Notes: generated by a model from the sequence alone, not told the origin. Shown: positions 1,217 to 34,756, counted from the stretch's first letter. The stretch is 38,546 nt of DNA from an uncultured Planctomycetales bacterium (GCA_964464385.1 CAYXFZ010000008.1:1-38546); one strand, 5' to 3'. Numbers and translations are program-made.

Positions 1217-2986
1217 TTACTTGATGGTCAATGCAAGGCTGTTTACGAACAACTGAGCCGTTCCAGCATCAGCACCATGGAACCAAATGTTGACTCCAGA
1301 GGCCCCAGGAGGGACGTTGTTGCTGACGGAAGCATTACCGCTAGCGTCTGCAACGAGCCTGATGAGTTTGTAAGGCGAAGAGACATTCGCATTGCCGTAG
1401 GGGGTACCAATTGGACCACCACCGGCCAGAGAGTAAGCGACGAAGACCGCGCCGCCAGGCGTGCAATTCGTGGTATCTACGGTTGCCGTTGCACCAGCAA
1501 CGAGGTTAGTCACTGCAATCGTCGGTCCCGGAGGAGCGGCACTGTAGATTGAAATGTCATCAATCTGGATGCCGTCCAGGTATCCCATTGGGAAGTTATC
1601 CATCTGAGCAAACAGCAAGTAGAACTGCCCATTGGTATCGACTCCTGAATTAGAGAGGTCGACTCCAGTGACAACTGTCCAGGCCGTCAGGAGAGGTGAC
1701 CAAGGTCCATAGACCATGGTCCAGTTCACTCCATCAGAGCTGACCCAAATGCCGTCCCATGTATGGGTTTCTTCACCATGATCAACGATGCCGAAATCCA
1801 AGAGCAAGTCACCAGCACCGGTTCCGTCTAGACCCATGATGAGGCCAGAGCGGTTCGAGAAGCCAGTTGGGCCCAAGGGATCTCCGCCCATTTCTAGGCA
1901 GTAGGCACCCGAGCCGCTTCCGGCCCAGATTCCCGCGCCAGAACCAGTTTCCTGGCCACAAGCACCTTGCTGGCCAATGTTGCACCAGGCACCTGCATCT
2001 GGAAGACCAGTTATGTCAGACAAGGCGTTGGCGCCCATGTGCGAAGGAACCACACCGGCGTGACCATCAAAGTTCTCGTTATGAACTGCGGGAATGAAGA
2101 CAGTTGGCAGTTCAGGCCAAAGCGGAGGTGGCGGTGGGGGTGCACCAACGGTGTCATAGACAGCAATTGAGTCTGGCGCCGTTTGATGCAACATCACCAT
2201 GGAGAGACCATTGGCGTTGAGAGGATCGTTGTAGACATCTGCTCCACCAGGGGAGCCACCGAGAGCGGTGAAAAAGCCAACTCCAGTGCCCAGTCCAGTT
2301 GCGGGGTCCATTTCAGTAGCCGAACCACCTGAGTCCGAGCACCAAATGGTGCCCTTATTGGAATCGTAACCCATTCCGTAGCTAGAAATAGCGGAATTGG
2401 GAAACACATTGATTACAGCACCCGTAGCCATGTCGAACTCGTAGGTTGAGCTAGTGAAAGACTTCGTGAAGAAGTTTCCAGTTGCTGTGTTCTGGCACAA
2501 GGCACGAACCGTTCCAACGACGGCAGTTGTCACCGTTGAGGCATGGGTCAATCCACCCGTGACCGGGTCGTAAGTTTGGACTTCTACAAGGCCGCTATCG
2601 TTGCCAATCCAGAGTGTATTGGCATTATCATCGGCCTCCATGTCTCGGCCTCCCCACCCACTGAGTGGAGTGAGTTGTGGGTAACTAGCAAGATAAGCAC
2701 CTTTTTTATCGTACTTATGAATCATGAAGTTATCGCCTACCGAGGAATGACCACGGCCACTGACCCAGTAATGACCAAAAGCTTCTTCGACACCGAGGCA
2801 CCGGTTGTCGTAGGGACCAGCTTCAACATCAAAGGGGCCAGCGATCAAATCTCCCAATCCGCGAGTACCAGCACCCATGGTGGGCAGGACTCGACCATCG
2901 GGATCAATGTCGTTGTTTTGAGCGGGCATGGCGACGGTAAGGCTCGCCAAAGTGAAAAGCAGAATTAAACTTTTTCCTAAAGTCAT
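1217..2986 (-). CDS. Secreted protein (beta-propeller-like N-terminal region, PPPPPP linker, jelly-roll-like domain) with the shared ~100-aa C-terminal domain
   Basis: Signal peptide MTLGKSLILLFTLASLTVAMPAQ from ATG 2986. C-terminus: TIAVTNLVAGATATVDTTNCTPGG..YSLAGGGPIGTPYG..SSPYK..DASGNAS..VPPGASGVNIWFHGADAG..NSLALTIK. The TTG-initiated extension to 3055 only translates the C-rich repeat. Confidence 0.8.
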   Translation of the reverse strand: MTLGKSLILLFTLASLTVAMPAQNNDIDPDGRVLPTMGAGTRGLGDLIAGPFDVEAGPYDNRCLGVEEAFGHYWVSGRGHSSVGDNFMIHKYDKKGAYLASYPQLTPLSGWGGRDMEADDNANTLWIGNDSGLVEVQTYDPVTGGLTHASTVTTAVVGTVRALCQNTATGNFFTKSFTSSTYEFDMATGAVINVFPNSAISSYGMGYDSNKGTIWCSDSGGSATEMDPATGLGTGVGFFTALGGSPGGADVYNDPLNANGLSMVMLHQTAPDSIAVYDTVGAPPPPPPLWPELPTVFIPAVHNENFDGHAGVVPSHMGANALSDITGLPDAGAWCNIGQQGACGQETGSGAGIWAGSGSGAYCLEMGGDPLGPTGFSNRSGLIMGLDGTGAGDLLLDFGIVDHGEETHTWDGIWVSSDGVNWTMVYGPWSPLLTAWTVVTGVDLSNSGVDTNGQFYLLFAQMDNFPMGYLDGIQIDDISIYSAAPPGPTIAVTNLVAGATATVDTTNCTPGGAVFVAYSLAGGGPIGTPYGNANVSSPYKLIRLVADASGNASVSNNVPPGASGVNIWFHGADAGTAQLFVNSLALTIK

Positions 2987-2995
2987 GGGGCTGGT

Positions 2996-3038
2996 GGGGA
3001 AGGGGGAAGGGGGAAGGGGGAAGGGGGAAGGGGGCGGG
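2996..3038. repeat. Heptanucleotide tandem repeat (AAGGGGG)x5 flanked by extra G-runs; G-quadruplex-capable on the + strand, C-rich leader on the coding strand
   Basis: G-runs at 2996-2999, 3002-3006, 3009-3013, 3016-3020, 3023-3027, 3030-3034 and 3036-3038, spaced by AA. The array ends 10 nt upstream of ATG 2986. Confidence 0.9.
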
Positions 3039-3276
3039 TAAGAACCCAGCCACAAATTCCAAGATATTCCTTTTTGTTCAGCCTGGGGTTAGAAATTGCT
3101 TATTTCTGGGGATTAACGTTCTCTAGATGCACTTAAGCGGTGTTTTTAGGCTCAGAATCACCAAATTGGCAACTTTGCCTACATGTCTTGGTTCGAAAAG
3201 CAACTCATTTTGAGGACTTCACTTTCGCCTGAATTGTCCTTTTTGGGTAAGGAAAGGGTCATTTTCTGATGCTGCA

Positions 3277-4161
3277 TTAGGGTTTTTCCTTACAGATGGA
3301 GCCCGCGAACACCTTCAGAATTTCCAATTGCTCGGACGGAGTGTGATCTGGCGAGGACATGACCGACCTTGCGACCACTTGCGGCCAGGGCGAGGGACCC
3401 AGGGCCGCAAGTCGAGGTACGGAGGCTGCAACCAAGCTGAGTACGTTCTTGGCGTTGGCTCGAGCCGTGGCCACAACCGTTGCGACATCCACGTCGTCGT
3501 GGTCGGGATACCAGCAGTCGTAATCCGTCACCATGGCGATGCAACACCAACTCATACCAGCCTCGCGAGCAAGTTTGCTCTCGGTGCCATTGGTCATGCC
3601 AACGATTTTTGCCCCCCAGGATCGAAAGAGTTCCGACTCCGCCTTGGAGGAAAATTGAGGTCCTTCGATGCAAACATAGGTGCCGCCAGCATGGGCCTCC
3701 ACGCCGACTTCTTGGGCGGCGGCGGAAACGGCCATCACCATGTCCGGGCAGACAGGATGAGCCCAGGGCATATGGGCCACCAAGCCATCCCCGAAAAAAG
3801 TTTGAATGCGGCGATGGGTTCGATCTATGAACTGATCCACCAATACAAAATCCCCCGGGGCATATTCTTCGCAAAGAGAGCCAACCGCACTCACGGAGAG
3901 GAGACGCTGGACGCCAAGCTCTCTTAGGGCGAAGATATTGGCTCGGTAGGGGACCTCCGTTGGAGTCAAAGTGTGGTGTCGGCCATGGCGGGGCAAAAAT
4001 GCGACCGGAATTCCATTCAACTTCCCACAACGAAGGACATCCGAGGGGCGACCGAAAGGTGTGTCCAACTCGAGGTTTTGGACATCCGAGAGGCCATCGA
4101 GTTCATAGATTCCACTGCCCCCAATGACGCCCACGAGGATGGGGTCTCGACCTGTAGTCAC
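3277..4161 (-). CDS. mtnP: S-methyl-5'-thioadenosine phosphorylase
   Basis: ILVGVIGGSGIYELDGL...TPFGRPSD...FLPRHGRHH...YRANIFALRELGV...GMTNGTESKLAREAG..MVTDYDCW matches the MTAP/PNP family. The GTG start at 4161 overlaps the upstream stop (GTGA). Confidence 0.9.
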   Translation of the reverse strand: MTTGRDPILVGVIGGSGIYELDGLSDVQNLELDTPFGRPSDVLRCGKLNGIPVAFLPRHGRHHTLTPTEVPYRANIFALRELGVQRLLSVSAVGSLCEEYAPGDFVLVDQFIDRTHRRIQTFFGDGLVAHMPWAHPVCPDMVMAVSAAAQEVGVEAHAGGTYVCIEGPQFSSKAESELFRSWGAKIVGMTNGTESKLAREAGMSWCCIAMVTDYDCWYPDHDDVDVATVVATARANAKNVLSLVAASVPRLAALGPSPWPQVVARSVMSSPDHTPSEQLEILKVFAGSICKEKP

Positions 4162-5588
4162 TGGATCCGCAGGCGATAGACGCCATCGTCGTCCGAAAGG
4201 GGCGTGGTCACGTTTGTGTCTGACCAGCGGATGGTTGCGAAAGCGGCGCTCATGTCGGCATTAAAGACAATGAGGTTTGCGTTTGCCTCGCTGTAGCCCA
4301 AAGTGGGCGAGAAATCCAGGCCCGAATCCCAAGATTTCATCCAGCCCGACTTGCCGGAATCCAAGGATCCATACACCTTGGTGTTGTTGCTTGCAGGGTC
4401 ACCCGCATCCGAGCGAAGGGATCCGACCATGCAGGCTTGAAAGGCGGGGCCAGAACCAATACCCACGGCCCCGGCAGGTGTGGCATCCACAATCTTGAGA
4501 GTCAATGCAGAATTGGACGCAGGATCCGTCCAATTGGCGATGTAGGGAAGATCAGCGTTGCGTGCAGTCCAGGAACCATTTTTGGTAAAAAAGATTCCTT
4601 TGCTGCGATTGTTGACTTGAACGTTGGTGGCAAGATCAATGTCGAAGGTCAGGCCCGTGTGGGAGGCCCAGACGGCGGCCTTGGGACCCGTAGCAGCCAT
4701 GAGAATCATGGTTGAGGAAGAAACTCGAACGGTACTGGTGCCCAGGCTGTTGGACTGGTTGATTTGCGTGGGCAGTCCGGAGTTGGCCTTTTGGAAGGTA
4801 CCAGCCCCGGAGCTTGCACTGAAATAAACTTGGCCAGAAGACGTGGCCTTTTTGCTTCCAAACAAGATCACAGTGTTGATGTGGACATCAAGCATGCCCA
4901 GCAAAACATAATTCGGAGACTGTGGCAGGACAACAATGCTTGCGGCAACACCCGTGCGTGATTTGCCATCGGAAGTGCTGTCATAACGTGGCGGAAGTCC
5001 CGAGTTGTTGCTGGTCCAGCTCTGTCCTCCATCCAGCGAAAAGAAAAAACCAGGATGGTTGGGAGAAGGGTTCAAGAGATCGAAACCCGCGGTTTGGGCC
5101 ACACTGAGATAAATGCGGTTGGCATTCCCGGGATCCATGGCCACGGCCACTGCGCCCCAGTTGGCGTTGGGGAAACCAAGGCCGTTGTGGATTGGTGACC
5201 AGGAGGACCCCCCATCCGTGGAACGGAACACGCCATCTTCTTTTGTGCCAACTACCAAAGTGTTGGGCGAGGATTGACAAATGGCAATATCCATGATCTC
5301 GGCGTCGCCAGCCAGGGAGGCATCGCTCAATTGGGACCAAGTATTTCCAGCATCACGAGTGACCCAGAGCCCATCCCCGGGTCCGGGAGTCCCGGTGACG
5401 GGATCCAGAGAGGAAACTGTGCACAAATAGAGGGTGCTGGGGTCGGTCGGATGCGCGATCATGCGCCCAAGATTGCTCTGCAGAACCGTGCCATTCAGGG
5501 GCGTGGCTTCCCACTGGTAACCACGCTCCTGAGCAGGAGCGATTGGGGAGGCAAGAGAAACGGCGAGGAGGAAGGTGATGCAAACCAT
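4158..5588 (-). CDS. Secreted BNR/Asp-box repeat beta-propeller protein
   Basis: Signal peptide MVCITFLLAVSLASPIAPAQE from ATG 5588. Asp-boxes: TRDAGNTWS, STDGGSSWS, SLDGGQSWT. The ORF extension to 5738 would overlap eda. Confidence 0.8.
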   Translation of the reverse strand: MVCITFLLAVSLASPIAPAQERGYQWEATPLNGTVLQSNLGRMIAHPTDPSTLYLCTVSSLDPVTGTPGPGDGLWVTRDAGNTWSQLSDASLAGDAEIMDIAICQSSPNTLVVGTKEDGVFRSTDGGSSWSPIHNGLGFPNANWGAVAVAMDPGNANRIYLSVAQTAGFDLLNPSPNHPGFFFSLDGGQSWTSNNSGLPPRYDSTSDGKSRTGVAASIVVLPQSPNYVLLGMLDVHINTVILFGSKKATSSGQVYFSASSGAGTFQKANSGLPTQINQSNSLGTSTVRVSSSTMILMAATGPKAAVWASHTGLTFDIDLATNVQVNNRSKGIFFTKNGSWTARNADLPYIANWTDPASNSALTLKIVDATPAGAVGIGSGPAFQACMVGSLRSDAGDPASNNTKVYGSLDSGKSGWMKSWDSGLDFSPTLGYSEANANLIVFNADMSAAFATIRWSDTNVTTPLSDDDGVYRLRIQ

Positions 5589-5619
5589 GGTGTGTGGTTC
5601 CGAATTAGACCCTGCCAGT

Positions 5620-6255
5620 TTAACCTGCATTGGCCAATACTTGTTGAATGCGCTTGGACCGCGCTTCGATGGCGAGGAAGTTCCCACTGGCCATTTCTTC
5701 AGGGCGGAACAGGCTGGCGACAAAGCCGACCCCGGCAACTCCGAGCTTTAGCACTTCCTCAAAATTGTCTTCGTCCACTCCTGCAGTGGGAAATACCCGA
5801 AGGTCCGGGAGAGGGCCGCGCAGGGCAGTCAGAAAATCCAACAAATTCCCCGGAGAAGGAAATAATTTGACAAGGTCTGCGCCGCCGCGCCGAGCAACCA
5901 CCATTTCGGTAGGAGTGGAAGTTCCCGGGATGGAAGCAAGGTCCAATTCTCTGGCGAGGGAGACAATTTCGGAATCGAATACCGGCGACACAAGAAACCG
6001 AGCTCCAGCATAGGCGGCCTCACGAGCTTGTTCCGGTGTCATTACGGTACCGGCGCCCACACAAAGATTTTTGTTTGCCGCGAACTCGCGAATTAAATCC
6101 ATGGCACTTGGAATCGTGAGGGTGAATTCAATGACGGTAAACCCTCCTTGGACTGCAGCGCGCATGGCATGGCGGGCGTTGTCTGTGTCATCCGTCCGAA
6201 GAATGGCGCTGGCGCGAGCAGCGAGGATTTTCTGGACGGTGGTTTCTCGAGACAT
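5620..6255 (-). CDS. eda: 2-dehydro-3-deoxyphosphogluconate / 4-hydroxy-2-oxoglutarate aldolase
   Basis: ILRTDD...GGFTVIEFTLTIP...VGAGTVMTPEQA..A..AGARFLVSP...IPG..TPTE......GADLVKLFP matches the KDPG aldolase family pattern, ~210 aa. Confidence 0.85.
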   Translation of the reverse strand: MSRETTVQKILAARASAILRTDDTDNARHAMRAAVQGGFTVIEFTLTIPSAMDLIREFAANKNLCVGAGTVMTPEQAREAAYAGARFLVSPVFDSEIVSLARELDLASIPGTSTPTEMVVARRGGADLVKLFPSPGNLLDFLTALRGPLPDLRVFPTAGVDEDNFEEVLKLGVAGVGFVASLFRPEEMASGNFLAIEARSKRIQQVLANAG

Positions 6256-6288
6256 GGGAGCAGAATAAGGGCGCCCATGCCTCGAGTT

Positions 6289-8802
6289 TCAACCCACGAC
6301 CTCAGCCAATGGGTTGGATAAGGTGCCGGACCTCAAATCGAGTGCCTGGATCCAGATTTGGATCCCGGTCGCTCCGGCCGGAACGGCCAGAGGAAGGTTT
6401 GCCGTACCCACCGGATCCGAAACAACAGCAGGGAGATTGATAAACGGATTGGAAAGAGAGACCAGTCCCCAAGGAGTCGTTGTGGGGCCGGGGCCCGTGA
6501 ACGAACAGGCAAAGTAGGCCTTCTGGCTTGGAGTGAAATAGGTGGCGGACAAGAGGGCCTGTCCACCTGCAACAAGATTCCGTATGACAATGGAGGGCTG
6601 ATGCCACTCGGCCAAGGCGCGATACTTCGGAGCCTCGGCATAGGGTTGGTTTTGGTATTCCAGAACACCCCAAGAACCAAAGCGATTCCAAGCCTCCACA
6701 TAAGAAAAATTGTTGAATACCCCAACCCGTTCCGAGTGGAGCATATCCAGATAACGGGTGTACGTGTCCTTCATGCGAAGATCTCGATTGGCAGCCTGCA
6801 TAAGACCCATCAGGGTTGCATCGGCCTCGGCCCCTTCAATGGCATGGAAGTGCTGCCCTCCCTCGTAACAAACCAATTGGGCCCCTTGCGCTCGAGCAAT
6901 GTCCGTTTGCCAGATGATTTGGTTGCGGAGCTCGGCGATGGCATTTGCAGCAACGACATCCAACATGTCATCTACGGTTGGATAACTGGGCGCAATGGGG
7001 GGGATGTCTTCAGGGGAATAACTTCTGCCAAAATACGGGGCTATGGCGACCACGTCCGGCATCAGATAATTCGGGTTGATAGTCGGATCATTCAAGTATT
7101 GGAAACGAAGACCAGTGATGGAGAGCATGGAGGCTCGACCACCCATGACCTTGACAATACGAGTCGGATCGTTGTTGAATATCTCCAAGAAAAAACTCCA
7201 TGCTTGCGTGGAACGCAAAACATGATAAGCATTTCCTGCTTGCCAGTAGTCATCGCTGAGCCCCAAGGAAAATCCCGTATTTTGCACATAGGCGGCCTGG
7301 TCAAAAGTGTTGTTCCAGGTCTCATTGGAATACTCGACATATACCTTCGAGTATTGATTCATCGTAGTTTTGATCAAAGTCGCCATTTGACGAATGAAAT
7401 CGTCATCAGCTTGGTGAGGAATATTGATCCACAGATCCACCTTCATTTCGTTCACCAAGGAGATCACATGCTCCAAGGCGACGCCTTCAACTCCAGTTTG
7501 GGTGTAGGTGTCTGGCGTGGTTCGATCACTCCAGGAGACGACCGGCGAGTTCGAGGTCTTGGACCAACCAGTAAAGCGGATATGTTCAAAGGGGCGCAGG
7601 CGCTCGGTGAACTTGGGGTGGAAGAACAGGGTTTGATAGGTGTTGTCAAATCCTGGGCGCACCACCGAAATCTTGCGAATTGGATCCAAAACAGCCGAAC
7701 GAAGAATCTCGACGGCAATGGAGCCCTCTTCACCGCTAGGAATGACAAAGGTGCTGCTGAACGCGCCGCCTGTTGGGGAGTATTCGGTCGATGTGGCGTC
7801 TGCGATGATGCGCACTTCTCCTGTGCCTTCCATATGCACGGTGTAGGTGCCAAAGTCGGGAGCAGGCATGAGGGTGTGTGCAAAATGATCATTGCCGTCA
7901 GAGGCCAGAAAGGGGAGACCAGTCGGCCAACCATTTCCGTCCACGGACATTTCGGAAGCCATGCCGCTGTTCCAAACGGATTGGTTATTGACGTCTCGAG
8001 TGGACCAAGTGCGAGCAGTCTTGAACACATCCACGAAGGCCCAAGAAGTGGACCAGTCTTGAACTCCGGCCAAGTTCATGCCCAGGCTCATGTCGGGGGA
8101 GGGCAAGGAGTCAAAGTTCCCGGTAATTCGCATGTCCTGGTTGACCGTGATGGTGCGCGGATTCCCCAAGCCTGTCACATCCCCGGACCAACCCTGGAAA
8201 ATATTGTTGGGGTTGGGGCTTGCAAGTATCTGAATGTCGGTTCCTGCCTCAAACCAGGAACCGCTTGGAAATGTATTCACTGTGCCTCCCGAAAAAACCC
8301 GCAATTGAACATTGAACAGAGGGCCAGGTTGAGAAAGCAGGTGATTGGAAAGGCTAGTCAGGGAGGAATGGAGAATGTTGGCGCCGAAAACATAGGCGCG
8401 GAATTGGACGGATCCCGAAAGGGGGCCAAATCCCTGTGGGGGGACAATGAAGGAGACGGTGGGGCGGCCACTCGTGGTAGGCGCCAACTGGGTAGAAAAA
8501 ATGGCGTTTGCTGGAGAAAAGCCACCCACATCCGAAAAGATCACCAAATCCAGGGGATCTACCGAATCCGTTCCCATTTCGAAGCTGATTTTCTGTCCCC
8601 CTAGGTCGAAAGGCTTGCGCAGAGAATCCACCCGGAAGGAAAAATAACTCCCTTGGGCCAGGGCTTCCTCAAGATTGGGGGGCAAGGCCGAGTTTTCCTG
8701 CAATCCAGGCCCAGTGAGGCCAGGAGCAATCTGCAACCCTCCCGCGCCCTGGGCAGGGGCAGAAAAGGACGACAGGAGGATCAGAACGGCAACGAGAGGC
8801 AT
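6289..8802 (-). CDS. Secreted multidomain protein: N-terminal domain, InlB-B-repeat-like module, TIM-barrel glycoside-hydrolase-like domain, shared C-terminal domain
   Basis: Signal peptide MPLVAVLILLSSFSAPAQG from ATG 8802. NIFQGWSGDVTGLGNPRTITVNQDMRITGNF resembles a divergent InlB B-repeat. VYVEYSNETWN and LVCYEGGQH look like clan GH-A acid/base and nucleophile motifs (inference). C-terminus: IRNLVAGG...FTGPGPTTTPWG...VPAGATGIQIWIQALD...LSNPLAEVVG. Confidence 0.75.
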   Translation of the reverse strand: MPLVAVLILLSSFSAPAQGAGGLQIAPGLTGPGLQENSALPPNLEEALAQGSYFSFRVDSLRKPFDLGGQKISFEMGTDSVDPLDLVIFSDVGGFSPANAIFSTQLAPTTSGRPTVSFIVPPQGFGPLSGSVQFRAYVFGANILHSSLTSLSNHLLSQPGPLFNVQLRVFSGGTVNTFPSGSWFEAGTDIQILASPNPNNIFQGWSGDVTGLGNPRTITVNQDMRITGNFDSLPSPDMSLGMNLAGVQDWSTSWAFVDVFKTARTWSTRDVNNQSVWNSGMASEMSVDGNGWPTGLPFLASDGNDHFAHTLMPAPDFGTYTVHMEGTGEVRIIADATSTEYSPTGGAFSSTFVIPSGEEGSIAVEILRSAVLDPIRKISVVRPGFDNTYQTLFFHPKFTERLRPFEHIRFTGWSKTSNSPVVSWSDRTTPDTYTQTGVEGVALEHVISLVNEMKVDLWINIPHQADDDFIRQMATLIKTTMNQYSKVYVEYSNETWNNTFDQAAYVQNTGFSLGLSDDYWQAGNAYHVLRSTQAWSFFLEIFNNDPTRIVKVMGGRASMLSITGLRFQYLNDPTINPNYLMPDVVAIAPYFGRSYSPEDIPPIAPSYPTVDDMLDVVAANAIAELRNQIIWQTDIARAQGAQLVCYEGGQHFHAIEGAEADATLMGLMQAANRDLRMKDTYTRYLDMLHSERVGVFNNFSYVEAWNRFGSWGVLEYQNQPYAEAPKYRALAEWHQPSIVIRNLVAGGQALLSATYFTPSQKAYFACSFTGPGPTTTPWGLVSLSNPFINLPAVVSDPVGTANLPLAVPAGATGIQIWIQALDLRSGTLSNPLAEVVG

Positions 8803-8876
8803 GGCAGAATTCCGCTGGAATCTTACCATCGGAATTAGGATCTTGGGGGAGAGTTGGTACCGCCCAAACAAAGAAT

Positions 8877-9959
8877 TCAGGCCATATGGGCGGCCATTTT
8901 GGAGGAATTTGGAGCCTCTACAACGCCCCTTTCGGTAATGATGGCCGTCACGAACTTGGCCGGGGTGATATCGAATGCCGGATTCCAGGAGGAAATCTCG
9001 GCCGGGGCCAGACGGGTGCTCATTGTGTGGGCGATTTCTTCTGGATCTCGCAGTTCAATGGGGACCTCGGCTCCGCTCGGACACTGCATGTCCACGGTTG
9101 TCGTTGGGGCCGCTACATAGAAGGGGACGCCGTGTTCCCGAGCCAGGACAGCCAGTGGGTAGGTGCCTATTTTGTTGGCGACGTCCCCGTTGGCGGCAAT
9201 GCGATCACTACCGACAACAACTGCGTCAATCTTGCCTGCGGCAAGGGCCGAGGCAGCAGCGCTATCGCACTGCAAAGTGACGGGAATGCCGGCACGCTGG
9301 AGTTCCCAGGCCGTGATTCGAGCACCCTGCAACAGGGGTCTTGTTTCGTCGGCAAAGACCGCGATATTTTTTCCCAGTGCACGGGCGGCATACACCACGC
9401 CCAGGGCGGTCCCGATGCCCCCGGTGGCAAGGGCGCCCGCATTGCAGTGCGTCAGGACGGTGGGCGAGTCGTTCAAAAGTTCAGCGCCGTTTTTGCCAAT
9501 GGCCAAGCAAAGCGCCTGGTCCTCTAGGTGAAAGGCGCGGGCTTGCTCCAGAAGGGACTCAGACCACTCGATGGGAGTTCCCGAACCGGCTGTGGCCAGT
9601 GCCTGAGCGAAGGACAACATGCGTTGCGCACCGAGTCCAAGATTCACAGCGGTGGGGCGCGCTGCGGTCAATTCGATTGCGGCTTTTTCGGCCAGCTTCA
9701 GCCAAGCGTTGGCCGATTCTGTTTCGTGTTGTACTCCCAGCACCATGCCGTAGGCTCCAGCACAGCCCAAGGCGGGTGCGCCGCGCACCACAAGTCGTTG
9801 GATGGCCTCCACTAAATCAGGGACTGATGCCACCTCCACCTCCATTTCCTGGGAAGGAAGCAGAGTTTGCTCCAACAAACTCAATAGCCCGGGGATCTCG
9901 CCTTCCCAGCCCAGGGTGCGAAACCCTAGGTCAATGGCCGGCAAGGGGTGGGAAGTCAT
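8877..9959 (-). CDS. mtnA: S-methyl-5-thioribose-1-phosphate isomerase
   Basis: VRGAPALGCAGAYGM...TARPTAVNL...THCNAGALATGGIGTALGV...ADETRPLLQGARITAWEL...VVGSDRIAANGDVANKIGTY matches the MtnA/eIF-2B family. ATG 9959 overlaps the cupin stop (ATGA). Confidence 0.9.
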   Translation of the reverse strand: MTSHPLPAIDLGFRTLGWEGEIPGLLSLLEQTLLPSQEMEVEVASVPDLVEAIQRLVVRGAPALGCAGAYGMVLGVQHETESANAWLKLAEKAAIELTAARPTAVNLGLGAQRMLSFAQALATAGSGTPIEWSESLLEQARAFHLEDQALCLAIGKNGAELLNDSPTVLTHCNAGALATGGIGTALGVVYAARALGKNIAVFADETRPLLQGARITAWELQRAGIPVTLQCDSAAASALAAGKIDAVVVGSDRIAANGDVANKIGTYPLAVLAREHGVPFYVAAPTTTVDMQCPSGAEVPIELRDPEEIAHTMSTRLAPAEISSWNPAFDITPAKFVTAIITERGVVEAPNSSKMAAHMA

Positions 9960-15920: not shown

Positions 15921-15940
15921 AAGGTGTTCCAGGTTGGAAC

Positions 15941-16882
15941 CTAGCCTATGGTCATGGCCAAGGCGTTGGTCAGAGTTGCCGTTTGTAAGTCGGCGCCATG
16001 GAACCAAACATTGATTCCAGTCGTTCCTTTGGGGAGGCTTTGCATCAAGTTGGCCGCTCCCAAGGCATCGGTTTGCATTGGCACCACTTTGTAGGGTGGG
16101 CTGACATAGCCGGTGCCGAACGGAGTATTCACGGGACCGCCGCCTGCCAAGGACCACACGAAGTAAGCGGTGTCGTTGGGGGTGCAGTTTGTGAGATCAA
16201 CGCTCGTGGTTGCTCCGGCAACCAAGTTCGTGACAGCAAGAGTCGGTACGCCACCACCACCGGGGGTGTCGTAATAGATCGTGCCATTCCAAACACGGGG
16301 AACAAAAGTGCTACCCGTAAAGGAAGGAGTTCCTTTGCCGTAATAAGCATCCAAGGTCAGCTCGGCATTGGCATAGGTTTCCGGGGTGCTTGATCCGTTG
16401 GTGTAATTAATTCCTCCGGAGGTGCTGTAGTTGACATTGTCCATGTAAACGCCGTAGACCTGGCCGGCCAAAAAAGTCACTCCATTTCCGCTCAGATCGG
16501 CATACGTTGGGCCATAGGCCCCTGCACCCTGAATACCTGTCGCTTGACCAAGGAGGGTCCAACCCGAGGGGTTCATGTCGAAGCCCACACAAGTTCCCAT
16601 GCGGTACCAAACATCAATGTCGAACAAGCCGGTGTTGTTCCGCGCGTGGAAGTCAATGCCGGTTATTTCGAGATCTACGGACGGTGTGATGTCGAACATA
16701 TTGCCTGCGAAACCGTTGCCACCATTGAAGTGGGTAGTTAGGGAACCTGCCGCTCGATTGCTACTGCCGCCGGGGGCGGGGGCTGTCTGAACTGCGATTC
16801 CGTCATCGGCAATCACCGTGTTTTGGGAAAATCCAAACGGGGAAGTCAAAGCAAGACAAAGGAAAGGAAGAAGGGATTTCAT
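15941..16882 (-). CDS. Secreted protein (jelly-roll-like N-terminal domain) with the shared C-terminal domain; paralog of the 1217..2986 C-terminus
   Basis: Signal peptide MKSLLPFLCLALTSPFGFSQ from ATG 16882. C-terminus: TLAVTNLVAGATTSVDLTNCTPND..WSLAGGGPVNTPFG..SPPYK..DALGAAN..LPKGTTGINVWFHGADL..TNALAMTIG. Confidence 0.8.
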   Translation of the reverse strand: MKSLLPFLCLALTSPFGFSQNTVIADDGIAVQTAPAPGGSSNRAAGSLTTHFNGGNGFAGNMFDITPSVDLEITGIDFHARNNTGLFDIDVWYRMGTCVGFDMNPSGWTLLGQATGIQGAGAYGPTYADLSGNGVTFLAGQVYGVYMDNVNYSTSGGINYTNGSSTPETYANAELTLDAYYGKGTPSFTGSTFVPRVWNGTIYYDTPGGGGVPTLAVTNLVAGATTSVDLTNCTPNDTAYFVWSLAGGGPVNTPFGTGYVSPPYKVVPMQTDALGAANLMQSLPKGTTGINVWFHGADLQTATLTNALAMTIG

Positions 16883-16983
16883 GGTGGGGGTAAGAGGTAG
16901 AGGGGGGAGATGGTGAGCCATCCCTGCCAAGTTCGCAAGGAGAATCATATTAGCATAGAAAATTGGAATTCTGTTAGGGGGAG

Positions 16984-21189: not shown

Positions 21190-21200
21190 GTCTATTCTCC

Positions 21201-21758: not shown

Positions 21759-21854
21759 TCGGTTTCCAAGGGGTCAACGACACGACACTGCAGAAGTTTG
21801 GACATTTTTTTGGGATGGCATGATGGGGGTAGGATGCTTTTCCTTGTTTTGACG

Positions 21855-22757: not shown

Positions 22758-22774
22758 TAGGATTTCATGCAGCA

Positions 22775-24220: not shown

Positions 24221-24229
24221 ACCATTCCC

Positions 24230-25096: not shown

Positions 25097-25101
25097 AAAT
25101 C

Positions 25102-26478: not shown

Positions 26479-27797
26479 CCCCATCCAAGACCGACGACTC
26501 CACTCGAGAAAAAGTGCTTGCCAAGCACGAGGAATATATCCTCGGAGCCGTTGCCAATTACTACGTCGAGCCCATCGTCCCCGAGTCCGGTTCCGGGCGT
26601 CACCTGACGGATACCGATGGGCGTACTTACCTGGACTTTTTTGGTGGCATTCTCACTCTTTCCGTCGGTCACTGTGACGAGCGTGTCACCGGCCCTCTGA
26701 AGACTCAAATTGATCGCCTTGGCCACGTTTCGACCCTGTACCCGACGATTCCAATCGTCGAGCTTGCCGAGCGATTGGCTCGGATTACCCCGGGTCGCTT
26801 GCAAAAGAGCATGTTCACGGCAAGCGGGACCGAGGCCGACGAAACTGCGGTAGCTTTGGCCCAGGTTTACACCGGCTCGATTGAACTCATTGCCCTGCGT
26901 CATGGGTACTCCGGCCGTTCCTTGCTCGCCCAATCCCTGACGGGCCAAGCTCCGTGGCGGGCGGTGCCATCCCAAGTGGCTGGCATCAAGCATGCCCATG
27001 CCCCTTACTGTTACCGTTGTCCATTGAAGCTTGAATATCCAAGTTGTGGGGTCGCCTGTGCAACGGACATCGAAAATCTCATCCGGACCACTACCACCGG
27101 CCAGATTGCTGGCTTTTTGGCTGAACCGATCCTGGGTGTTGGCGGGTTCATTGTTCCTCCTCCTGAATACTTTCAGATCGCCACCGACATCGTTCGCAAG
27201 TACGGTGGTATTTTCATCTGCGATGAGGTGCAAACGGGCTTTGGCCGAACCGGCGGAAAAATGTTTGGCATTGAACATTGGGGTGTCGAACCCGAAGTCA
27301 TGACCATGGCCAAGGGCGTGGCCAACGGGATGCCCTTGGGCGTTACCATCGCCACGCCGGAAGTGGCCGATGCTTTTCAGGCCTTGACGATCTCGACATT
27401 CGGCGGCAACCCGGTTTCCTCCGCTGCGGCCAACGCCACCCTGGAGGTCATCGAACAGGAAAATTTGGCGCAAAACGCCGAAGTCATGGGCACGCGCCTG
27501 CGCAACGGCCTCGAAGAACTGCAACGCAAACACCCCAAGCACCTGGGCGACGTGCGCGGTAAGGGATTGATGCTCGCCATTGAATTCGTTGCCGACGAAC
27601 CGGCCGGCGATCGTAGCCCAAGCCCCACGACCACGAATTTGGTGTTTGAAGCAGCCAAGGAACGCGGTCTCTTGGTTGGCAAGGGCGGCCTGGACGGCAA
27701 CATTTTGCGCATTTCCCCCGCCTTAACCGTCACCACCGAGGAGATAGACCAAGCCCTGGATCTCCTCGGCCAAGCCTGTTCCAAACTACCCCAATAG
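26475..27797 (+). CDS. Class III (omega) aminotransferase, probable beta-alanine transaminase
   Basis: YLDFFGGILTLSVGHC, ICDEVQTGFGRTG and TMAKGVANGMPLG. No ATG follows the upstream stop; TTG 26475 overlaps TGA 26476-8 (GTG 26514 is an alternative). The ORF-track start at 26286 lies inside the dihydropyrimidinase gene. Confidence 0.8.
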   Translation: MTPSKTDDSTREKVLAKHEEYILGAVANYYVEPIVPESGSGRHLTDTDGRTYLDFFGGILTLSVGHCDERVTGPLKTQIDRLGHVSTLYPTIPIVELAERLARITPGRLQKSMFTASGTEADETAVALAQVYTGSIELIALRHGYSGRSLLAQSLTGQAPWRAVPSQVAGIKHAHAPYCYRCPLKLEYPSCGVACATDIENLIRTTTTGQIAGFLAEPILGVGGFIVPPPEYFQIATDIVRKYGGIFICDEVQTGFGRTGGKMFGIEHWGVEPEVMTMAKGVANGMPLGVTIATPEVADAFQALTISTFGGNPVSSAAANATLEVIEQENLAQNAEVMGTRLRNGLEELQRKHPKHLGDVRGKGLMLAIEFVADEPAGDRSPSPTTTNLVFEAAKERGLLVGKGGLDGNILRISPALTVTTEEIDQALDLLGQACSKLPQ

Positions 27798-27806
27798 GAG
27801 ACAACC

Positions 27807-28907
27807 TTGGTAAACCTCAGCATCGTCGTGGATGGCCTCACCTTCGCCAACCCCTTTATCCTTGCCTCCGGCCCACCTGGAACCAATGGCAAGGTGATCC
27901 AACGCTCTTTCGAGTTGGGTTGGGGTGGCATCGTTTGTAAGACGCTCAGCCTGGATCACAGCAAGGTGACCAACGTTGCCCCGCGCTACGGCAAGCTCGC
28001 CGATCTGGACGATCGAAAGAATGTGTTTGGCTTTCAAAACATAGAGCTGATTTCTGATCGCCCATTTGATGTCTGGCTCGAGGAATTAGCTGCCGCCAAA
28101 GCGGCCTACCCCGATCGCATTCTGATCGCATCCATCATGGAGGAGTACGAGAAGGCACGCTGGGTGGAAATTACCGAACGCACCCAGGATTCCGGAGTGG
28201 ATGCTTTTGAATTGAATTTTTCATGTCCGCATGGCCTTCCTGAGCGCCAAATGGGAGCGGCGATGGGCCAAGACCCAGCAATTGTGGAAGAGGTCACCGG
28301 TTGGGTGACAGCCGCCAGCAAGATTCCGGTTTGGGCCAAGATGACGCCCAATATCACCGACATTGCCGTGCCTGCCAAGGCCGCCGAGCGCGGCGGGGCC
28401 GACGGCCTGAGCGCCATCAATACCATCTTGGGTGTGATTGGTGTCAATCTCGACACCCTTCGCCCGATGCCAACCGTGGAGGGCTATACGGTCCCCGGCG
28501 GTTACTCCGGTCGTGCCGTGCGGCCGCTTGCTTTGCGTCAAGTCATGGAGTGCGCCCACGCTTGTCCTGACCTTTCCATCAGTGGTATGGGTGGGGTGGA
28601 GAATGCCTCGGATGCCGCGCAGTTCATGGCCTTGGGCGCTTCCACTGTTCAAGTTTGCACCGGTGCCATGTTGCAGGGCTACGAAATGATCACGGGTCTA
28701 TGCCAGGATCTATCCGACTTTCTGGATTCGAAAGAAATGACTTCGGTGAGTGAACTCGTCGGCGTTTCTTTGCCCTATTTTTCGACCCATGCCGATCTCG
28801 TCAACCGCCAGCGTGAAGCCAAGCGCGAAAAGGCGGGCGAAGCCGAGCGCGACAGCATGTGGCAGGGCAACATTGCCAAGGAAACGGATTCTCTCCTCAG
28901 CGATTGA
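27807..28907 (+). CDS. Dihydropyrimidine dehydrogenase PreA-like FMN (DHOD-fold) subunit without the C-terminal 4Fe-4S domain
   Basis: NPFILASGPP, LNFSCPHG (active-site Cys context) and MGGVENASDA. TTG start with AGGAG 7 nt upstream. The C-terminal 40 aa have no Cys. Confidence 0.8.
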   Translation: MVNLSIVVDGLTFANPFILASGPPGTNGKVIQRSFELGWGGIVCKTLSLDHSKVTNVAPRYGKLADLDDRKNVFGFQNIELISDRPFDVWLEELAAAKAAYPDRILIASIMEEYEKARWVEITERTQDSGVDAFELNFSCPHGLPERQMGAAMGQDPAIVEEVTGWVTAASKIPVWAKMTPNITDIAVPAKAAERGGADGLSAINTILGVIGVNLDTLRPMPTVEGYTVPGGYSGRAVRPLALRQVMECAHACPDLSISGMGGVENASDAAQFMALGASTVQVCTGAMLQGYEMITGLCQDLSDFLDSKEMTSVSELVGVSLPYFSTHADLVNRQREAKREKAGEAERDSMWQGNIAKETDSLLSD

Positions 28908-30351
28908 CCTGCCCGGTCAAACGCATCCCCAGCCAATACGTCGTTGCAGAAATGCCAAAGCCGACAAACCAAGCGTACTGATACAGATGGGTCCAAAAAT
29001 TTTCCACTTTTAATCCCTGGACGGCAACCAGGAAGCCCGGAAGGTTGGGGAGAACGCCGAGCACCAAGGCCAGGATGGCGACTAAGTTCACGCCGCGGAA
29101 ATAGCGGTAGGGGCCATCCGTACGGTAAAGACCCTCCAAGTCAAGTTGAGTTCGACGGACGATGAAGTAGTCGATGATGACGATGCCGCCGATGGGGCCC
29201 AGTAGGGCCGAATAGCCAATCAGCCAAGTGAAGATGTATCCGCCGGTGCTCTCGATGAGTTTCCAGGGGAAGATCACGACCCCAATCCCGGCCGTGATCA
29301 TGGCGCCGATGCGGAAACTGGCCTTGCGCGGAGCCAAGTTCATGATGGCGTTGGCGGGGGAGACCACGTTGGCGGCAATGTTGGTGGAGAGCGTGGCCAC
29401 GGTCAGAGCGCAGAGGGAAACCACGACCCCGAGCCCACCACCCATGCGGCCGGCCAGGACGGTGGGATTGGGAATGGCTTCCCCAAAAATCACCACGGTG
29501 GCCGAGGTCACGGCAACACCGATGAAGGCGAAGAGCGTCATAAACAAGGGCAAACCGATCGCCTGACCCATGATTTGGTCGCGTTGGCTCTTGGCGTAGC
29601 GGGTGAAGTCGGGGATGTTCAGGGAAAGAGTCGCCCAAAAACCGACCATGCCCGTCAATCCGGGCAGGAAGGCGGACATGAATTTTCCTTCCTTGGGGCC
29701 GCCAGGGTCAAAAGCGGAAGGGGTCGAGAGCGTGGCGCCGAAACCATCGGCTTTGATATAGGCCCACCCCAGAAGAGCGAGTCCCAGCAGAATCAAAAAG
29801 GGTGCAGCCCAAGTTTCCAGCACTCGGATGGAATCCATGCCCCGCAAAAGGATGGCCACTTGCAACGCCCAAAAGAGACCGAAGCAGAGCAGTTCGCCTG
29901 CGTTGATGCCCAGCCAGGCCAGGTCGGGGCCAATCAAAAATCCACCGGCCAAAGCATTGAAGAGTTGGTAAATGGCACTGCCGCCAATCCAGGTTTGAAT
30001 GCCGAACCAACCGCAGGCCACGGCGGCGCGCAGCATGGAGGGGATGTGGGAACCATGAATGCCAAAACTGGCGCGGGAGAGGACCGGGAAGGGGATGCCG
30101 TATTTGGTGCCGGCGTGGCCATTGAGGAGCATCGGGATCAGGACGATGGCGTTTCCCAAAAGGACGGTGCAGACGGCCTGCCACCAGTTCATGCCCAGAT
30201 CAATCAGACCACCCGCCAGCATGTAGGTGGGGACGCAGACCACCATGCCAATCCAAAGCGAGGCCATGTGGCGGACCTTCCACGTGCGACCTTCGGGCGG
30301 GGTGGGCGCTAGGTCATCGTTGATTAGGCGCGGGTCGGGTTGGTTGAGCAT
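28897..30351 (-). CDS. NCS1-family nucleobase:cation symporter (cytosine/uracil/allantoin-type permease)
   Basis: INDDLAPTPPEGRTWKVRHMASLWIGMVV at the N-terminus, ~12 predicted TM segments, 484 aa. The 3' end overlaps the PreA-like gene by 11 nt. Confidence 0.85.
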   Translation of the reverse strand: MLNQPDPRLINDDLAPTPPEGRTWKVRHMASLWIGMVVCVPTYMLAGGLIDLGMNWWQAVCTVLLGNAIVLIPMLLNGHAGTKYGIPFPVLSRASFGIHGSHIPSMLRAAVACGWFGIQTWIGGSAIYQLFNALAGGFLIGPDLAWLGINAGELLCFGLFWALQVAILLRGMDSIRVLETWAAPFLILLGLALLGWAYIKADGFGATLSTPSAFDPGGPKEGKFMSAFLPGLTGMVGFWATLSLNIPDFTRYAKSQRDQIMGQAIGLPLFMTLFAFIGVAVTSATVVIFGEAIPNPTVLAGRMGGGLGVVVSLCALTVATLSTNIAANVVSPANAIMNLAPRKASFRIGAMITAGIGVVIFPWKLIESTGGYIFTWLIGYSALLGPIGGIVIIDYFIVRRTQLDLEGLYRTDGPYRYFRGVNLVAILALVLGVLPNLPGFLVAVQGLKVENFWTHLYQYAWFVGFGISATTYWLGMRLTGQVNR

Positions 30352-30393
30352 GGAAAGAAGGGAGGGCCGCTAGGCTCCCCCCTGCCGGAGAGC

Positions 30394-32624: not shown

Positions 32625-32655
32625 AATACTCCTAAAGTCGTCCTTGAGGAGGTCC

Positions 32656-32732
32656 GTCCCCGTAGCTCAGCTGGATAGAGCATCGGTTTCCTAAACCGAA
32701 GGTCACACGTTCGAATCGTGTCGGGGACGCCA
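32656..32732 (+). tRNA. tRNA-Arg(CCT): tRNA-Arg (anticodon CCT), CCA encoded
   Basis: Manual cloverleaf: acceptor GTCCCCG/CGGGGAC, D stem GCTC/GAGC, anticodon stem TCGGT/ACCGA with loop TTCCTAA, 5-nt variable loop, T stem ACACG/CGTGT with loop TTCGAAT, discriminator G, then CCA. Confidence 0.9.
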
Positions 32733-32842
32733 TTCCCTTTGTTTGGGGAGTGCTCAGAAGTTATGGGGCTCTTCAGAGGTGAAGAACTTGTCCTAATTTT
32801 GTCCTAGCTGGAATGGGCAGTCAAGCTATCTATCGTCGGCGG

Positions 32843-34756
32843 TTACTGAATTGTAAGCGCCAAGCCATTGCTTAACTTGCGTCTAGCTACATCAAAAGCC
32901 TGAGCCCATATGGGAATTCCAGAAGCGCCAGCAGGGACAAAGACCTGCCACTGAATAAATCCATTCGTATCGGAACGTCCTTTGCGTAAAGGAAAGTACG
33001 GAGGACTCAGAGCCAAATCTCCCCAGGGAGAGCTTGATGGCCCGCCACCCGCCAAAGAATAGGCGGTGTATATCAGCTTTCCAGGAGTCGTATCTGTTAC
33101 TTGAATGTTTGCTGACTGTCCCGCGCTGAGACTTGTAATGGAAAGGGTCGGGTCAGGGGGTGGCGCTTGGTTGTAATAAAACGCACCCATGTCCGTGCGT
33201 GTGCCATCTGGGTCGAGGGGAGAATTCGGGTTGCCCGTATCGATGCAAGGGGAGCCGGATTGCAAATGAACGTCCCCGTTTGCAGGATCAACAAACAACG
33301 GGTCGACATCGATGTTGCCTGTGCCCGACCAGCCACCTTTCACATCGCTGTAGGTAACATTAGGACCACCGCCATAGACATAAATTTCCGGACTCTGCGG
33401 TGCGTTGTTGCCCCAAAGTATGCAACTGTCCAGGTATAAAATTGTTGAGTAATAATATATTCCGCCGCCTTCAGTGCTAGCTGTGTTGTTCGTAAACGTG
33501 CAGTTGTCCAAGGTTGAAATGTTGCCTAAAGGGCGAAAATCGTCGCAAAAAATTCCGCCGCCTCTGGTTGCCGTATTGTCCGAAAACGTGCAGTTGTCCA
33601 AGGTTGAGGAGGAAAGCGTGGTCCAGAATATCCCGCCGCCATCGAAGCTGGCCGCGTTGTTCGTAAACGTGCAATTGTCCAATGTCGGAGATGAGGAGAA
33701 GCAATACATCCCGCCACCCCTGTAGTTAGTGTCGTTAGTCGTGAACGTGCAGTTGGCCAATGTCGGAGAGGAGGAGGAGGAAAATATCCCGCCGCCGTAA
33801 TACTGACTCGTGTTATTCGTAAACGTGCAGTTCTCCAAATTCGCGGGGGAGGCGTAGCAAAGCATCCCGCCGCCAGAGTCAGCCGTATTGGCCGTAAACG
33901 TGCAGTCCTCCAAGATCGGAGAGGAGTTATCGCAAGACATCCCTCCGCCATCGAGGCTGGCCACGTTGTTCGTAAACGTGCAGTTGTTCAAAGCCGGGGA
34001 TGAATCGTCGACAAAAAGACCACCGCCTTCCCAGGCTGTGTTGTTTGAAAATGCGCAGTTGTCCATGGTCGGAGAAGAGAAGCGGTAGCAATACATCCCG
34101 CCACCACTGTTGGAAGCCATGTTGCTCGTAAACGCGCAGTTCTTTAAGGTCGGAGAGGAATACCAGTAGCAAGACATTCCGCCGGCGTTGCCGGTAGTTG
34201 TGTTGTCCTTAAACGTGCAGTCCTCCACTATCGGGGAGGAGTTATTGCAAGACATCCCGCCACCGTAGCCGGTAGCCGTGTTGTCCTTAAACGTGCAAAA
34301 TTTTATGCTCGGGGAGGCGGAAATACAGCACACCCCGCCGCCGTTGATAGAGTTTCCATTCGTCACCGTAAACCCCTCAATTATCGAGTTGATCCCCTCG
34401 CCGCTGTCGAACGTCACAACACTTCCCGCCTGATTCCCATCAATAACCGTTGTCGCAGGACCATTCTCGCTCTTCAACGTAATCGCCTTTCCATTGAAGT
34501 TAATGTTCTCAACATAAGCCCCATCCCTGACAATCACAGTGTCTCCATTGACTACCTGGGCATCATCAATCGCCTGCTGGATTCCAGTGAAATTGCCGGA
34601 ACCACTCTGATCTACATACCAGGTGGACTGGGCAATCCCCGCTGAAGGGAAAACCAGAAAAACAAGGGAAAGGAAGGCGTGTCGCACAGTAAGGGGAGGA
34701 GCTGGAAAAACTCTCCTCCAGTCTATTAAAGAAAGAAAATCTCTGTTTGGAGACAA
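32843..34756 (-). CDS. Secreted right-handed parallel beta-helix (PbH1) repeat protein with the shared C-terminal domain
   Basis: ~12 tandem ~26-aa coils of the form GGGM.C....SSP.L.NCTF.NNTA. C-terminus: TLSITSLSAGQ...YSLAGGGPSSSPWG..SPPY..DTNG...VPAGASGIPIWAQAFD...LSNGLALTIQ. The signal peptide RHAFLSLVFLVFPSAGIAQS suggests GTG 34687 as an alternative start. Confidence 0.85.
   Translation of the reverse strand: MSPNRDFLSLIDWRRVFPAPPLTVRHAFLSLVFLVFPSAGIAQSTWYVDQSGSGNFTGIQQAIDDAQVVNGDTVIVRDGAYVENINFNGKAITLKSENGPATTVIDGNQAGSVVTFDSGEGINSIIEGFTVTNGNSINGGGVCCISASPSIKFCTFKDNTATGYGGGMSCNNSSPIVEDCTFKDNTTTGNAGGMSCYWYSSPTLKNCAFTSNMASNSGGGMYCYRFSSPTMDNCAFSNNTAWEGGGLFVDDSSPALNNCTFTNNVASLDGGGMSCDNSSPILEDCTFTANTADSGGGMLCYASPANLENCTFTNNTSQYYGGGIFSSSSSPTLANCTFTTNDTNYRGGGMYCFSSSPTLDNCTFTNNAASFDGGGIFWTTLSSSTLDNCTFSDNTATRGGGIFCDDFRPLGNISTLDNCTFTNNTASTEGGGIYYYSTILYLDSCILWGNNAPQSPEIYVYGGGPNVTYSDVKGGWSGTGNIDVDPLFVDPANGDVHLQSGSPCIDTGNPNSPLDPDGTRTDMGAFYYNQAPPPDPTLSITSLSAGQSANIQVTDTTPGKLIYTAYSLAGGGPSSSPWGDLALSPPYFPLRKGRSDTNGFIQWQVFVPAGASGIPIWAQAFDVARRKLSNGLALTIQ
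33391..34342 (-). repeat. Coding tandem repeats (~75-81 nt beta-helix coils)
   Basis: Recurrent ...gttcgtaaacgtgcagttgtccaa... blocks at about 33483, 33573, 33655, 33730, 33810, 33885, 33965, 34038, 34120, 34200 and 34280. Shadow ORFs 33474..33725, 33526..33951 and 33888..34088 lie here. Confidence 0.8.

Follow-up and report, generated by a model that had tools for sequence, protein, structure and literature searches.

An Ig-like C-terminal domain on diverse exported proteins of uncultured marine Planctomycetota: a candidate surface-targeting or anchoring tag

The described systems closest to the subject of this report are the C-terminal domains of the T9SS (type IX secretion system), the short tripartite sorting signals, and folded anchoring domains such as the SLH domains and dockerins. 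Tripartite sorting signals are 20-35 amino acids (aa) long. They are composed of a signature motif, a transmembrane (TM) helix and a cluster of Arg residues (doi 10.1101/2023.06.07.544157). T9SS C-terminal domains are compact Ig-like sandwiches of seven strands in a 3+4 arrangement (PMC11285876), and a survey of bacterial genomes for secretion systems found the T9SS confined to Bacteroidetes (PMC4793230). Surface-protein domains found in combination with one anchor or another (LPXTG, PEP-CTERM or T9SS) have been named "choice-of-anchor" domains (doi 10.1101/2023.03.06.531300). Here, a stretch of 38,546 nucleotides from an uncultured Planctomycetales bacterium (GCA_964464385.1, CAYXFZ010000008.1:1-38546; the window) was analyzed, in which four otherwise unrelated exported proteins end in a common domain, the module. 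The distribution of the module, and its replacement by established sorting signals in homologs of one of its carriers, make it a credible candidate for a surface-targeting or anchoring tag.

Four window proteins and the family of their common C-terminal domain

The four proteins are encoded by minus-strand open reading frames (ORFs) at 1217-3055, 6289-8871, 15941-16948 and 32843-34756, whose translations end alike. Each consists of a signal peptide, a cargo region unrelated to the other three, and a C-terminal module of ~103-105 aa, arranged as follows.

Gene 1, 1217..2986, minus strand: start ATG 2986; signal peptide 2921-2986, MTLGKSLILLFTLASLTVAMPA, followed by Q; unannotated cargo of ~460 aa; module
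Module copy 1, 1220..1534, minus strand: 105 codons; ends ...LALTIK; stop codon 1217-1219
Gene 2, 6289..8829, minus strand: putative start ATG 8829; signal peptide 8752-8829; InlB B-repeat-like domain 8110-8292; large unannotated region; module
Module copy 2, 6292..6606, minus strand: ends ...LAEVVG; stop codon 6289-6291
Gene 3, 15941..16882, minus strand: start ATG 16882; signal peptide 16826-16882; beta-sandwich cargo of ~190 aa; Gly-rich linker; module
Module copy 3, 15944..16258, minus strand: the copy used for the AlphaFold2 model
Gene 4, 32843..34687, minus strand: probable start GTG 34687; signal peptide 34628-34687; right-handed beta-helix with PMP repeats; choice-of-anchor-Q-like cap (weak match); Pro-rich linker; module
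Module copy 4, 32846..33160, minus strand: ends ...LALTIQ; stop codon 32843-32845

A preliminary description, made from the DNA of the window alone, had placed a common C-terminal module on four signal-peptide proteins at these positions, and this was borne out by alignment and by profile search. The copies align without large gaps, share 26 invariant columns and are 36-52% identical to copy 1, and in the window's six-frame translation a profile hidden Markov model (HMM) of the module recovered exactly four copies (E 1e-49 to 1e-52), with the next match at E 0.59. The stop codon directly follows the module in all four genes. Because the copies are only 43-58% identical in DNA, their paralogy is old and lies at the protein level; a DNA-level repeat or a recent spread of a cassette is ruled out by the same figures. 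Read heuristically, the signal peptides of all four proteins are of the Sec type, with cleavage sites MPA-Q (gene 1), APA-Q (gene 2), GFS-Q (gene 3) and GIA-Q (gene 4).

Two gene starts were revised. Gene 4 had been given a start at 34756, but the start is most likely GTG 34687, where the near-identical public protein P0015 begins. For gene 2, previously bounded at 8802, ATG 8829 is the more plausible start. The names proposed for the cargoes fared unevenly. That of gene 4 is indeed a beta-helix with PMP repeats, and the jelly-roll-like cargo of gene 3 (16265-16825) appears in the AlphaFold2 model as a beta-sandwich whose nearest fold is that of PHR domains; it carries the motif GSLTT...NG.AGNMFDI...RVWNGTIYYD and is covered by no Pfam or NCBIfam model. 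The term "glycosidase-like" for gene 2 found no support, as no glycosidase family was matched and no homolog was found in the PDB; its InlB B-repeat-like domain was detected as PF18998 at E 5.4e-6. Gene 1 had been called propeller or jelly-roll-like, and its cargo returned zero matches in Pfam, NCBIfam and the PDB. Homologs of this cargo that also bear the module are present in three loci of Planctomycetota metagenome-assembled genomes (MAGs; L004, L007 and L013) and in protein P0016. Antisense to gene 2, the plus strand has an ORF of 748 aa (6358-8604). Nothing supports it, and it is most likely an artefact of composition; similar long antisense ORFs are also present in the MAG loci.

The module had been put forward as unrecognized, and Pfam-A (2025) and NCBIfam (2026) yielded no match at E<=10 with the four window copies and none at E<=1 with 60 diverse members; literature searches likewise found no description of it. 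It does not map to a known sorting-signal or adhesin family in Pfam, NCBIfam or the sequences of the PDB. The four copies had suggested a large family in this genome. Across 1.84 billion representatives clustered at 50% identity, an exhaustive HMMER search retrieved a large family, with 1101 clusters passing E<=1e-3, of which 460 pass E<=1e-10; a word-indexed protein search with the module profile gave just 14-17 matches, chiefly short fragments. The named cluster members are all entered at NCBI as "hypothetical protein [Planctomycetota bacterium]". In a genome scan with a narrow pattern and one genome per GTDB species, so that the taxonomic range may be underestimated, all 16 of the 16 matching loci belonged to MAGs of uncultured Planctomycetota, including UBA1135, J029, NIOZ-UU38 and NAT19. 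The contig of the window is itself part of a metagenome assembly in ENA.

The module ends 0-1 residue before the C terminus in 210 of 217 proteins, and a further two deviate just by a divergent last strand. The strictly terminal position first ascribed to it thus holds for ~97% of members, and in 5/217 the module is truly non-terminal, standing after the signal peptide or internally. In P0070, P0078 and P0081 the order is signal peptide, module and FGE-sulfatase domain, in P0127 the module is flanked by two FGE-sulfatase domains, and in P0146 it lies between RCC1 and an IPT-like domain; proteins with FGE-sulfatase domains thus account for four of the five cases (P0070, P0078, P0081 and P0127). 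No protein among the 217 carries two copies. Its single copy and terminal position amount to tag-like behavior, and the few N-terminal or internal occurrences are easier to reconcile with a binding module than with a signal dependent on a free C terminus. Across 36 loci (500 kb) the module is terminal in 58 of 63 module genes, and the remaining five differ only by a divergent last strand. Short matches that might have been proteins of signal peptide and module only proved to be gene fragments or genes with mis-called starts. Tandem arrays of two to five module genes were observed in MAG or metagenome loci L003, L004, L005, L007, L014 and L016, reaching five genes in L007, four in L003 and three in L016, and the arrayed genes are often paralogs with a like type of cargo.

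In composition the module is rich in Gly, Ala, Thr, Ser and Pro and acidic, with a median isoelectric point (pI) of 4.6 and a median of two Lys plus Arg residues. Near-invariant positions are S40, G43, G45, P46, G52, P59, G72, P81, G86, W90, D95 and N103; more than half of the members lack the Asn that would make an N-x-T sequon of the "NCTP" motif. The module terminates in a beta-strand of the form ..LSNxLAxTI[GQ], with no hydrophobic helix. An AlphaFold2 model of copy 3, run with a 60-sequence alignment, is all-beta with nine strands laid out as a seven-strand Ig-like sandwich and an extra hairpin (pLDDT 96.8, pTM 0.87), and in the model of full-length gene 3 the module follows a Gly/Pro linker of lower confidence. 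On these models the module is confidently predicted to be a compact domain that folds autonomously. The comparison with T9SS domains and Ig folds that had been suggested for such a model placed it with the Ig-like sandwiches: a Foldseek search of the PDB gave a best E of 1.2e-3, the top matches were neocarzinostatin-type apoproteins and Ig/FN3 domains (TM 0.46-0.60), and no T9SS C-terminal domain was among the best 50. A search of PDB sequences with the module profile returned only noise, such as a cadherin and the C-1027 apoprotein at E 0.4-0.6. As judged from the model, the module has no close solved structural relative.

Complete module proteins nearly all start with a signal peptide of the signal peptidase I type (lipobox-like in 3/145), and an [AGS]-Q dipeptide stands at its end in 131 of 145, against a background of 15% per 20-aa window, figures that rest on heuristic calls of the cleavage site. 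Gln at +1 of signal peptidase I substrates is known as the "Bacteroidetes Q-rule". The mean Q-value is 71% in Bacteroidetes; values for Chlamydiae and Spirochaetes are typically <20% and those for most Chlorobi <9%, in an analysis that did not include Planctomycetes (PMC5837995). The rule coincides phylogenetically with the T9SS but proved not to be a sorting signal in Bacteroidetes (PMC5837995). The present pattern suggests pyroglutamate N termini in a clade of Planctomycetota. Gln at +1 was also observed in most exported proteins that lack the module, both in the window (4158-5738 and 12471-15806) and in loci L005, L014, L015, L017 and L018.

Cargo proteins and the exchange of C-terminal tails

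The cargo was surveyed by scanning 114 full-length module proteins with Pfam and NCBIfam. By Pfam, Beta_helix is present in 13 members, FG-GAP in 12, Chlam_PMP repeats in 11, a reprolysin-type M12 protease in seven, FGE-sulfatase in four, and RCC1 and C-type lectin in three each, with subtilase, LamG, phytase-like and other domains in one each. NCBIfam detected the choice-of-anchor domains J (six members, best E 2.6e-13) and Q (four) and Z repeats (three), and also named, as relatives of some cargoes, the PEP-CTERM protein ScyF, the GlyGly-CTERM family SVAGG and an M6-like protease that depends on the T9SS. Judging by these families, the cargo is highly diverse and of kinds typical of surface or extracellular proteins.

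A homolog search with the cargo domain of gene 3 alone, a domain that proteins P0166-P0250 carry as well, yielded 89 proteins, of which 53 have the module; it is at the extreme C terminus in 51 of these. In P0245-P0249 a PEP-CTERM signal occupies the C terminus in the place of the module; PF07589 scored above its cut-off in P0245 and P0246, the two that were scanned, and NCBI gives the name PEP-CTERM protein to P0246, which is cyanobacterial. The C terminus of P0229 is an IPTL-CTERM signal (PF18203, above cut-off), P0240 has the same precomputed Pfam annotation, and in P0237 the IPTL-CTERM match is sub-threshold only. Both PF07589 and PF18203 match only those cargo homologs that lack the module. 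The cargo domain of gene 3 thus behaves as a choice-of-anchor domain. One cargo domain bears different tails according to lineage, several of them established sorting signals, which places the module in the sorting or anchoring slot; this tail swapping is strong comparative evidence for that slot, and the strongest available. Within this family, folded tails and short tripartite signals would seem to be evolutionarily interchangeable solutions to one problem. Of the sorting or anchoring role proposed in the preliminary description, what stands is circumstantial, namely these swapped signals and the choice-of-anchor cargo, and the function itself we infer.

Other proteins with gene-3-type cargo bear unannotated C-terminal beta tails of ~110-130 aa, of at least two further types. 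We distinguish type A (P0180, P0188, P0190, P0203 and P0217), type B (P0196, P0197, P0206, P0208 and others) and type C (P0198 and P0200). Types A and B were considered as relatives of the module and found to be unrelated by hhalign, and the hhalign match of type C to the module is marginal (probability 46%, E 2e-4). Types B and C share with the module the ending ...SN-x-hydrophobic-x-hydrophobic.

Possible function of the module and its genomic setting

The reading we favor, to which we give a probability of roughly 0.45, is that the module is a lineage-specific, autonomous Ig-like beta-sandwich tail that serves, through one shared partner, as a common envelope address or anchor for diverse Sec-exported proteins, covering part of the exported proteome in a clade of uncultured marine Planctomycetota, and that it is functionally analogous to, and not homologous with, PEP-CTERM and IPTL-CTERM signals, T9SS C-terminal domains, SLH domains and dockerins. 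Such proteins would be exported by Sec, their signal peptides being cut by signal peptidase I, as their sequences indicate. The folded tail would then bind a single envelope partner, which might be an outer-membrane protein or else a glycan or lipid of the surface, and by this means the cargoes (beta-helix/PMP adhesins, FG-GAP proteins, M12 and S8 proteases, lectins, RCC1 propellers and others) would be brought to one place and held there non-covalently.

Several points weigh against this. When 389 ORFs from the 36 loci were clustered, no non-cargo family and no secretion or processing machinery, the latter suggested earlier as a companion worth looking for, was found to adjoin the module genes consistently. 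Cargo genes of known sorting systems are likewise dispersed, so that this null is uninformative rather than negative. The near-invariant residues are mostly Gly or Pro and could be purely structural. The module is also not more conserved than its cargo; this idea, checked within the gene-3 family, was false, with the module falling to a floor of ~37% identity. Finally, a C-terminal beta-sandwich could equally bind an external substrate instead.

Among the alternatives, it is unlikely that the module is the recognition signal of an undescribed outer-membrane translocation and attachment pathway with T9SS-like logic, in which the tail would be recognized in the periplasm, the cargo would cross the outer membrane and the tail would possibly be cleaved. 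A folded Ig-like sandwich of ~100 aa, present once at the extreme C terminus of many unrelated Sec-exported cargoes, is what such a pathway might use, some of the cargo families depend on T9SS, PEP-CTERM or GlyGly-CTERM in other phyla, and the frequent Gln at +1 (131/145) is typical of Bacteroidetes, where it coincides with the T9SS (PMC5837995). The parallel with Bacteroidetes in both the Q-rule and the folded C-terminal tag raises the prior for a secretion signal of this kind. The tail would on that account be the cargo signal of an unrecognized system of marine Planctomycetota for outer-membrane secretion and attachment at the surface, independent of the T9SS of Bacteroidota but convergent on it in its folded tag and Gln/pyroglutamate N termini, an unlikely proposal whose secretome, if true, would be the family of >1000 clusters. 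Yet a C-terminal translocation signal should not tolerate the five N-terminal or internal cases, no candidate translocon or peptidase recurs beside the module genes, and Gln at +1 is found also in exported proteins without the module and is not a sorting signal in Bacteroidetes (PMC5837995).

It is likewise doubtful that the module is a ligand-binding domain, similar to a carbohydrate-binding module (CBM) or an adhesive domain, directed at a substrate outside the cell, for example marine particles, prey surfaces or algal polysaccharide, and not at the cell's own envelope. The weak likeness of its fold to the small-ligand-binding neocarzinostatin-type apoproteins and to Ig/FN3 binders is consistent with this, as are its occasional N-terminal or internal position, which CBMs share, and the proteases, a pectate-lyase-like beta-helix and the lectins among the cargo; the conserved aromatic or polar residues W90, Q/H92, S40 and N103 have a strand periodicity that would put them on one face of a sheet. 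Set against these are the absence of any duplication within a protein, the many non-enzymatic cargoes (FG-GAP, RCC1 and PMP), the lack of a match between the module and any CBM or adhesin model, and the exchange of the module in cargo homologs with the cell-anchoring PEP-CTERM and IPTL-CTERM signals and not with known CBMs.

A passive structural cap, spacer or stabilizer that domain accretion had spread through a lineage whose secretome had expanded would account for the prevalence of Gly and Pro, for conservation no higher than that of the cargo, and for the absence of machinery near the module genes. We consider it quite improbable, as a spacer ought to occur in tandem or between domains and not once at the very end of >95% of proteins, its replacement by real sorting signals in homologs would be hard to explain, and the module has been kept across >1000 diverged clusters. 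That the module truly belongs, as a highly divergent member, to the T9SS C-terminal domains and is handled by the canonical system of Bacteroidota is extremely improbable: it has the same general logic and an Ig-like sandwich, and GldK/PorK is the best NCBIfam match of the four FGE-sulfatase members, but this lead was rejected as those scores (44-178 bits against a cut-off of 350, with matches to EgtB, PvdO and SenA as well) reflect the generic FGE-sulfatase fold, no T9SS C-terminal model matched at E<=1, no such structure was among the best 50 Foldseek matches, nine strands with an extra hairpin differ from the 3+4 arrangement of seven (PMC11285876), and the T9SS was found only in Bacteroidetes (PMC4793230).

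Outer-membrane protein transport and surface display are poorly understood in Planctomycetota, and the marine clades concerned are uncultured. A single HMM of the tail would label a large part of the surface or extracellular proteome of the clade that is now "hypothetical protein", including adhesin-like beta-helices, FG-GAP proteins, proteases and lectins, and would provide a handle for a partner search by phylogenetic profiling. A partner that is a translocon or an enzyme of attachment would make this a new protein-sorting system, and one that is an envelope ligand would make the tail a new anchoring module, of use in surface display.

Several gene families recur near module genes, each in three to five loci: ECF sigma factors, ABC exporters or ATPases, Ser/Thr kinase-TPR proteins, CotH-LTD proteins, a sulfatase, TolC-like OEP and BNR/sortilin-like proteins. 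ECF sigma factors are near module genes in 5/36 loci. In the window, a gene for a large vWF_A/VWA/YfbK_C protein has an ECF sigma-70 factor gene immediately upstream (18640-21758, minus strand), the two possibly forming an anti-sigma/VWA pair. Exported BNR/Sortilin-Vps10-like proteins are found near module genes in 3/36 loci (4158-5738 on the minus strand of the window, 1574-4915 in L018 and 6292-7359 in L006), a proximity that is probably due to chance.

Of the remaining genes, those at 22775-30351 encode an aldehyde dehydrogenase, a CN-hydrolase (beta-ureidopropionase-like), an amidohydrolase (dihydropyrimidinase-like), a class-III aminotransferase and a DHO-dehydrogenase-family protein, with a cytosine/uracil-type permease on the opposite strand, an apparent cluster for reductive pyrimidine/beta-alanine catabolism. 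Gene 2 is flanked by a phosphorylase-superfamily gene (3277-4161, minus strand; PNP_UDP_1, possibly an MTA phosphorylase) and an IF-2B-family gene (8877-10016, minus strand; MtnA-like), which would belong to methionine salvage if these assignments hold. A KDPG/KHG aldolase gene is located at 5620-6255. On the plus strand, 10254-15806 holds a UPF0261 and PEP_hydrolase-like gene pair followed by a gene for a 1111-aa ThuA-DUF7133-CBM-cytochrome c fusion, an architecture probably typical of bacteria of the PVC group.

Comparison with known sorting and anchoring systems

Substrates of type I secretion leave the cell through ABC/MFP/TolC assemblies and have no Sec signal peptide at the N terminus. 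The Sec signal peptides of module proteins rule out a type I secretion signal; ABC and TolC-like neighbors are found in just 3-4 of the 36 loci and are of unrelated types. Nor does the module belong to the Ig-like adhesin repeats or CBMs (Big, PKD, FN3, CARDB, DUF11 and CBM families), for which there was no Pfam or NCBIfam match and no tandem copies.

At the level of fold, the module is most similar to the neocarzinostatin, macromomycin and C-1027 apoproteins, which also have a seven-strand Ig-like sandwich with a small hairpin subdomain and gave the best Foldseek matches. These proteins are enediyne carriers of actinomycetes, with a biology unrelated to that of the module. The similarity is weak (TM 0.46-0.60, E 1.2e-3 to 7e-3, 12-18% identity), and apoprotein sequences of the PF00960 type in the PDB match the module profile at E 0.6-7. 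In the model the resemblance is one of fold only, with no evidence of homology.

The T9SS C-terminal domains of type A in Bacteroidota provide the closest parallel in logic. Like the module, they are folded Ig-like sandwiches (~80-100 aa) found once in a protein, at its extreme C terminus, and attached to many unrelated surface or extracellular cargoes that are exported by Sec, and their hosts, like those of the module, have Gln at +1 of signal peptides. That the motifs differ, as was supposed at the outset, was upheld: the profiles TIGR04183/PF18962 and TIGR04131/PF13585 matched neither the four copies (E<=10) nor the 60 members (E<=1), and the domain censuses of the 114 full-length members contained no T9SS C-terminal family. 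The module further differs in its strand count and extra hairpin, in a host phylum not known for the T9SS, and in the few copies that are N-terminal or internal. No T9SS core component (SprA/Sov, PorV, PorU or GldK/L/M/N) was seen within the 500 kb of loci.

The tripartite signals (PEP-CTERM/exosortase, IPTL-CTERM, GlyGly-CTERM, LPXTG and MYXO-CTERM) share with the module the C-terminal slot, the many paralogs per lineage and the occurrence on signal-peptide proteins. The module is instead a soluble beta-sandwich of ~100 aa, and the early view that it is not of the PEP-CTERM or LPXTG kind agrees with its lack of a signature motif, TM helix and Arg cluster or other basic tail. With no hydrophobic helix, a median of two Lys plus Arg and a pI of ~4.6, it cannot be a substrate of an intramembrane protease or transpeptidase of the tripartite type.

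The SLH, dockerin-cohesin, LysM and WxL domains resemble the module as autonomous folded units, mostly placed at one end of diverse exported proteins, with a position that is occasionally flexible and a single shared envelope partner, which for the module is proposed. They differ from it in having an unrelated fold and sequence, and the module is never tandem-repeated. The tail thus fills the slot that PEP-CTERM, IPTL-CTERM, GlyGly-CTERM or T9SS domains hold in homologous proteins of other phyla and, as far as its sequence and predicted fold indicate, is a member of none of these families.

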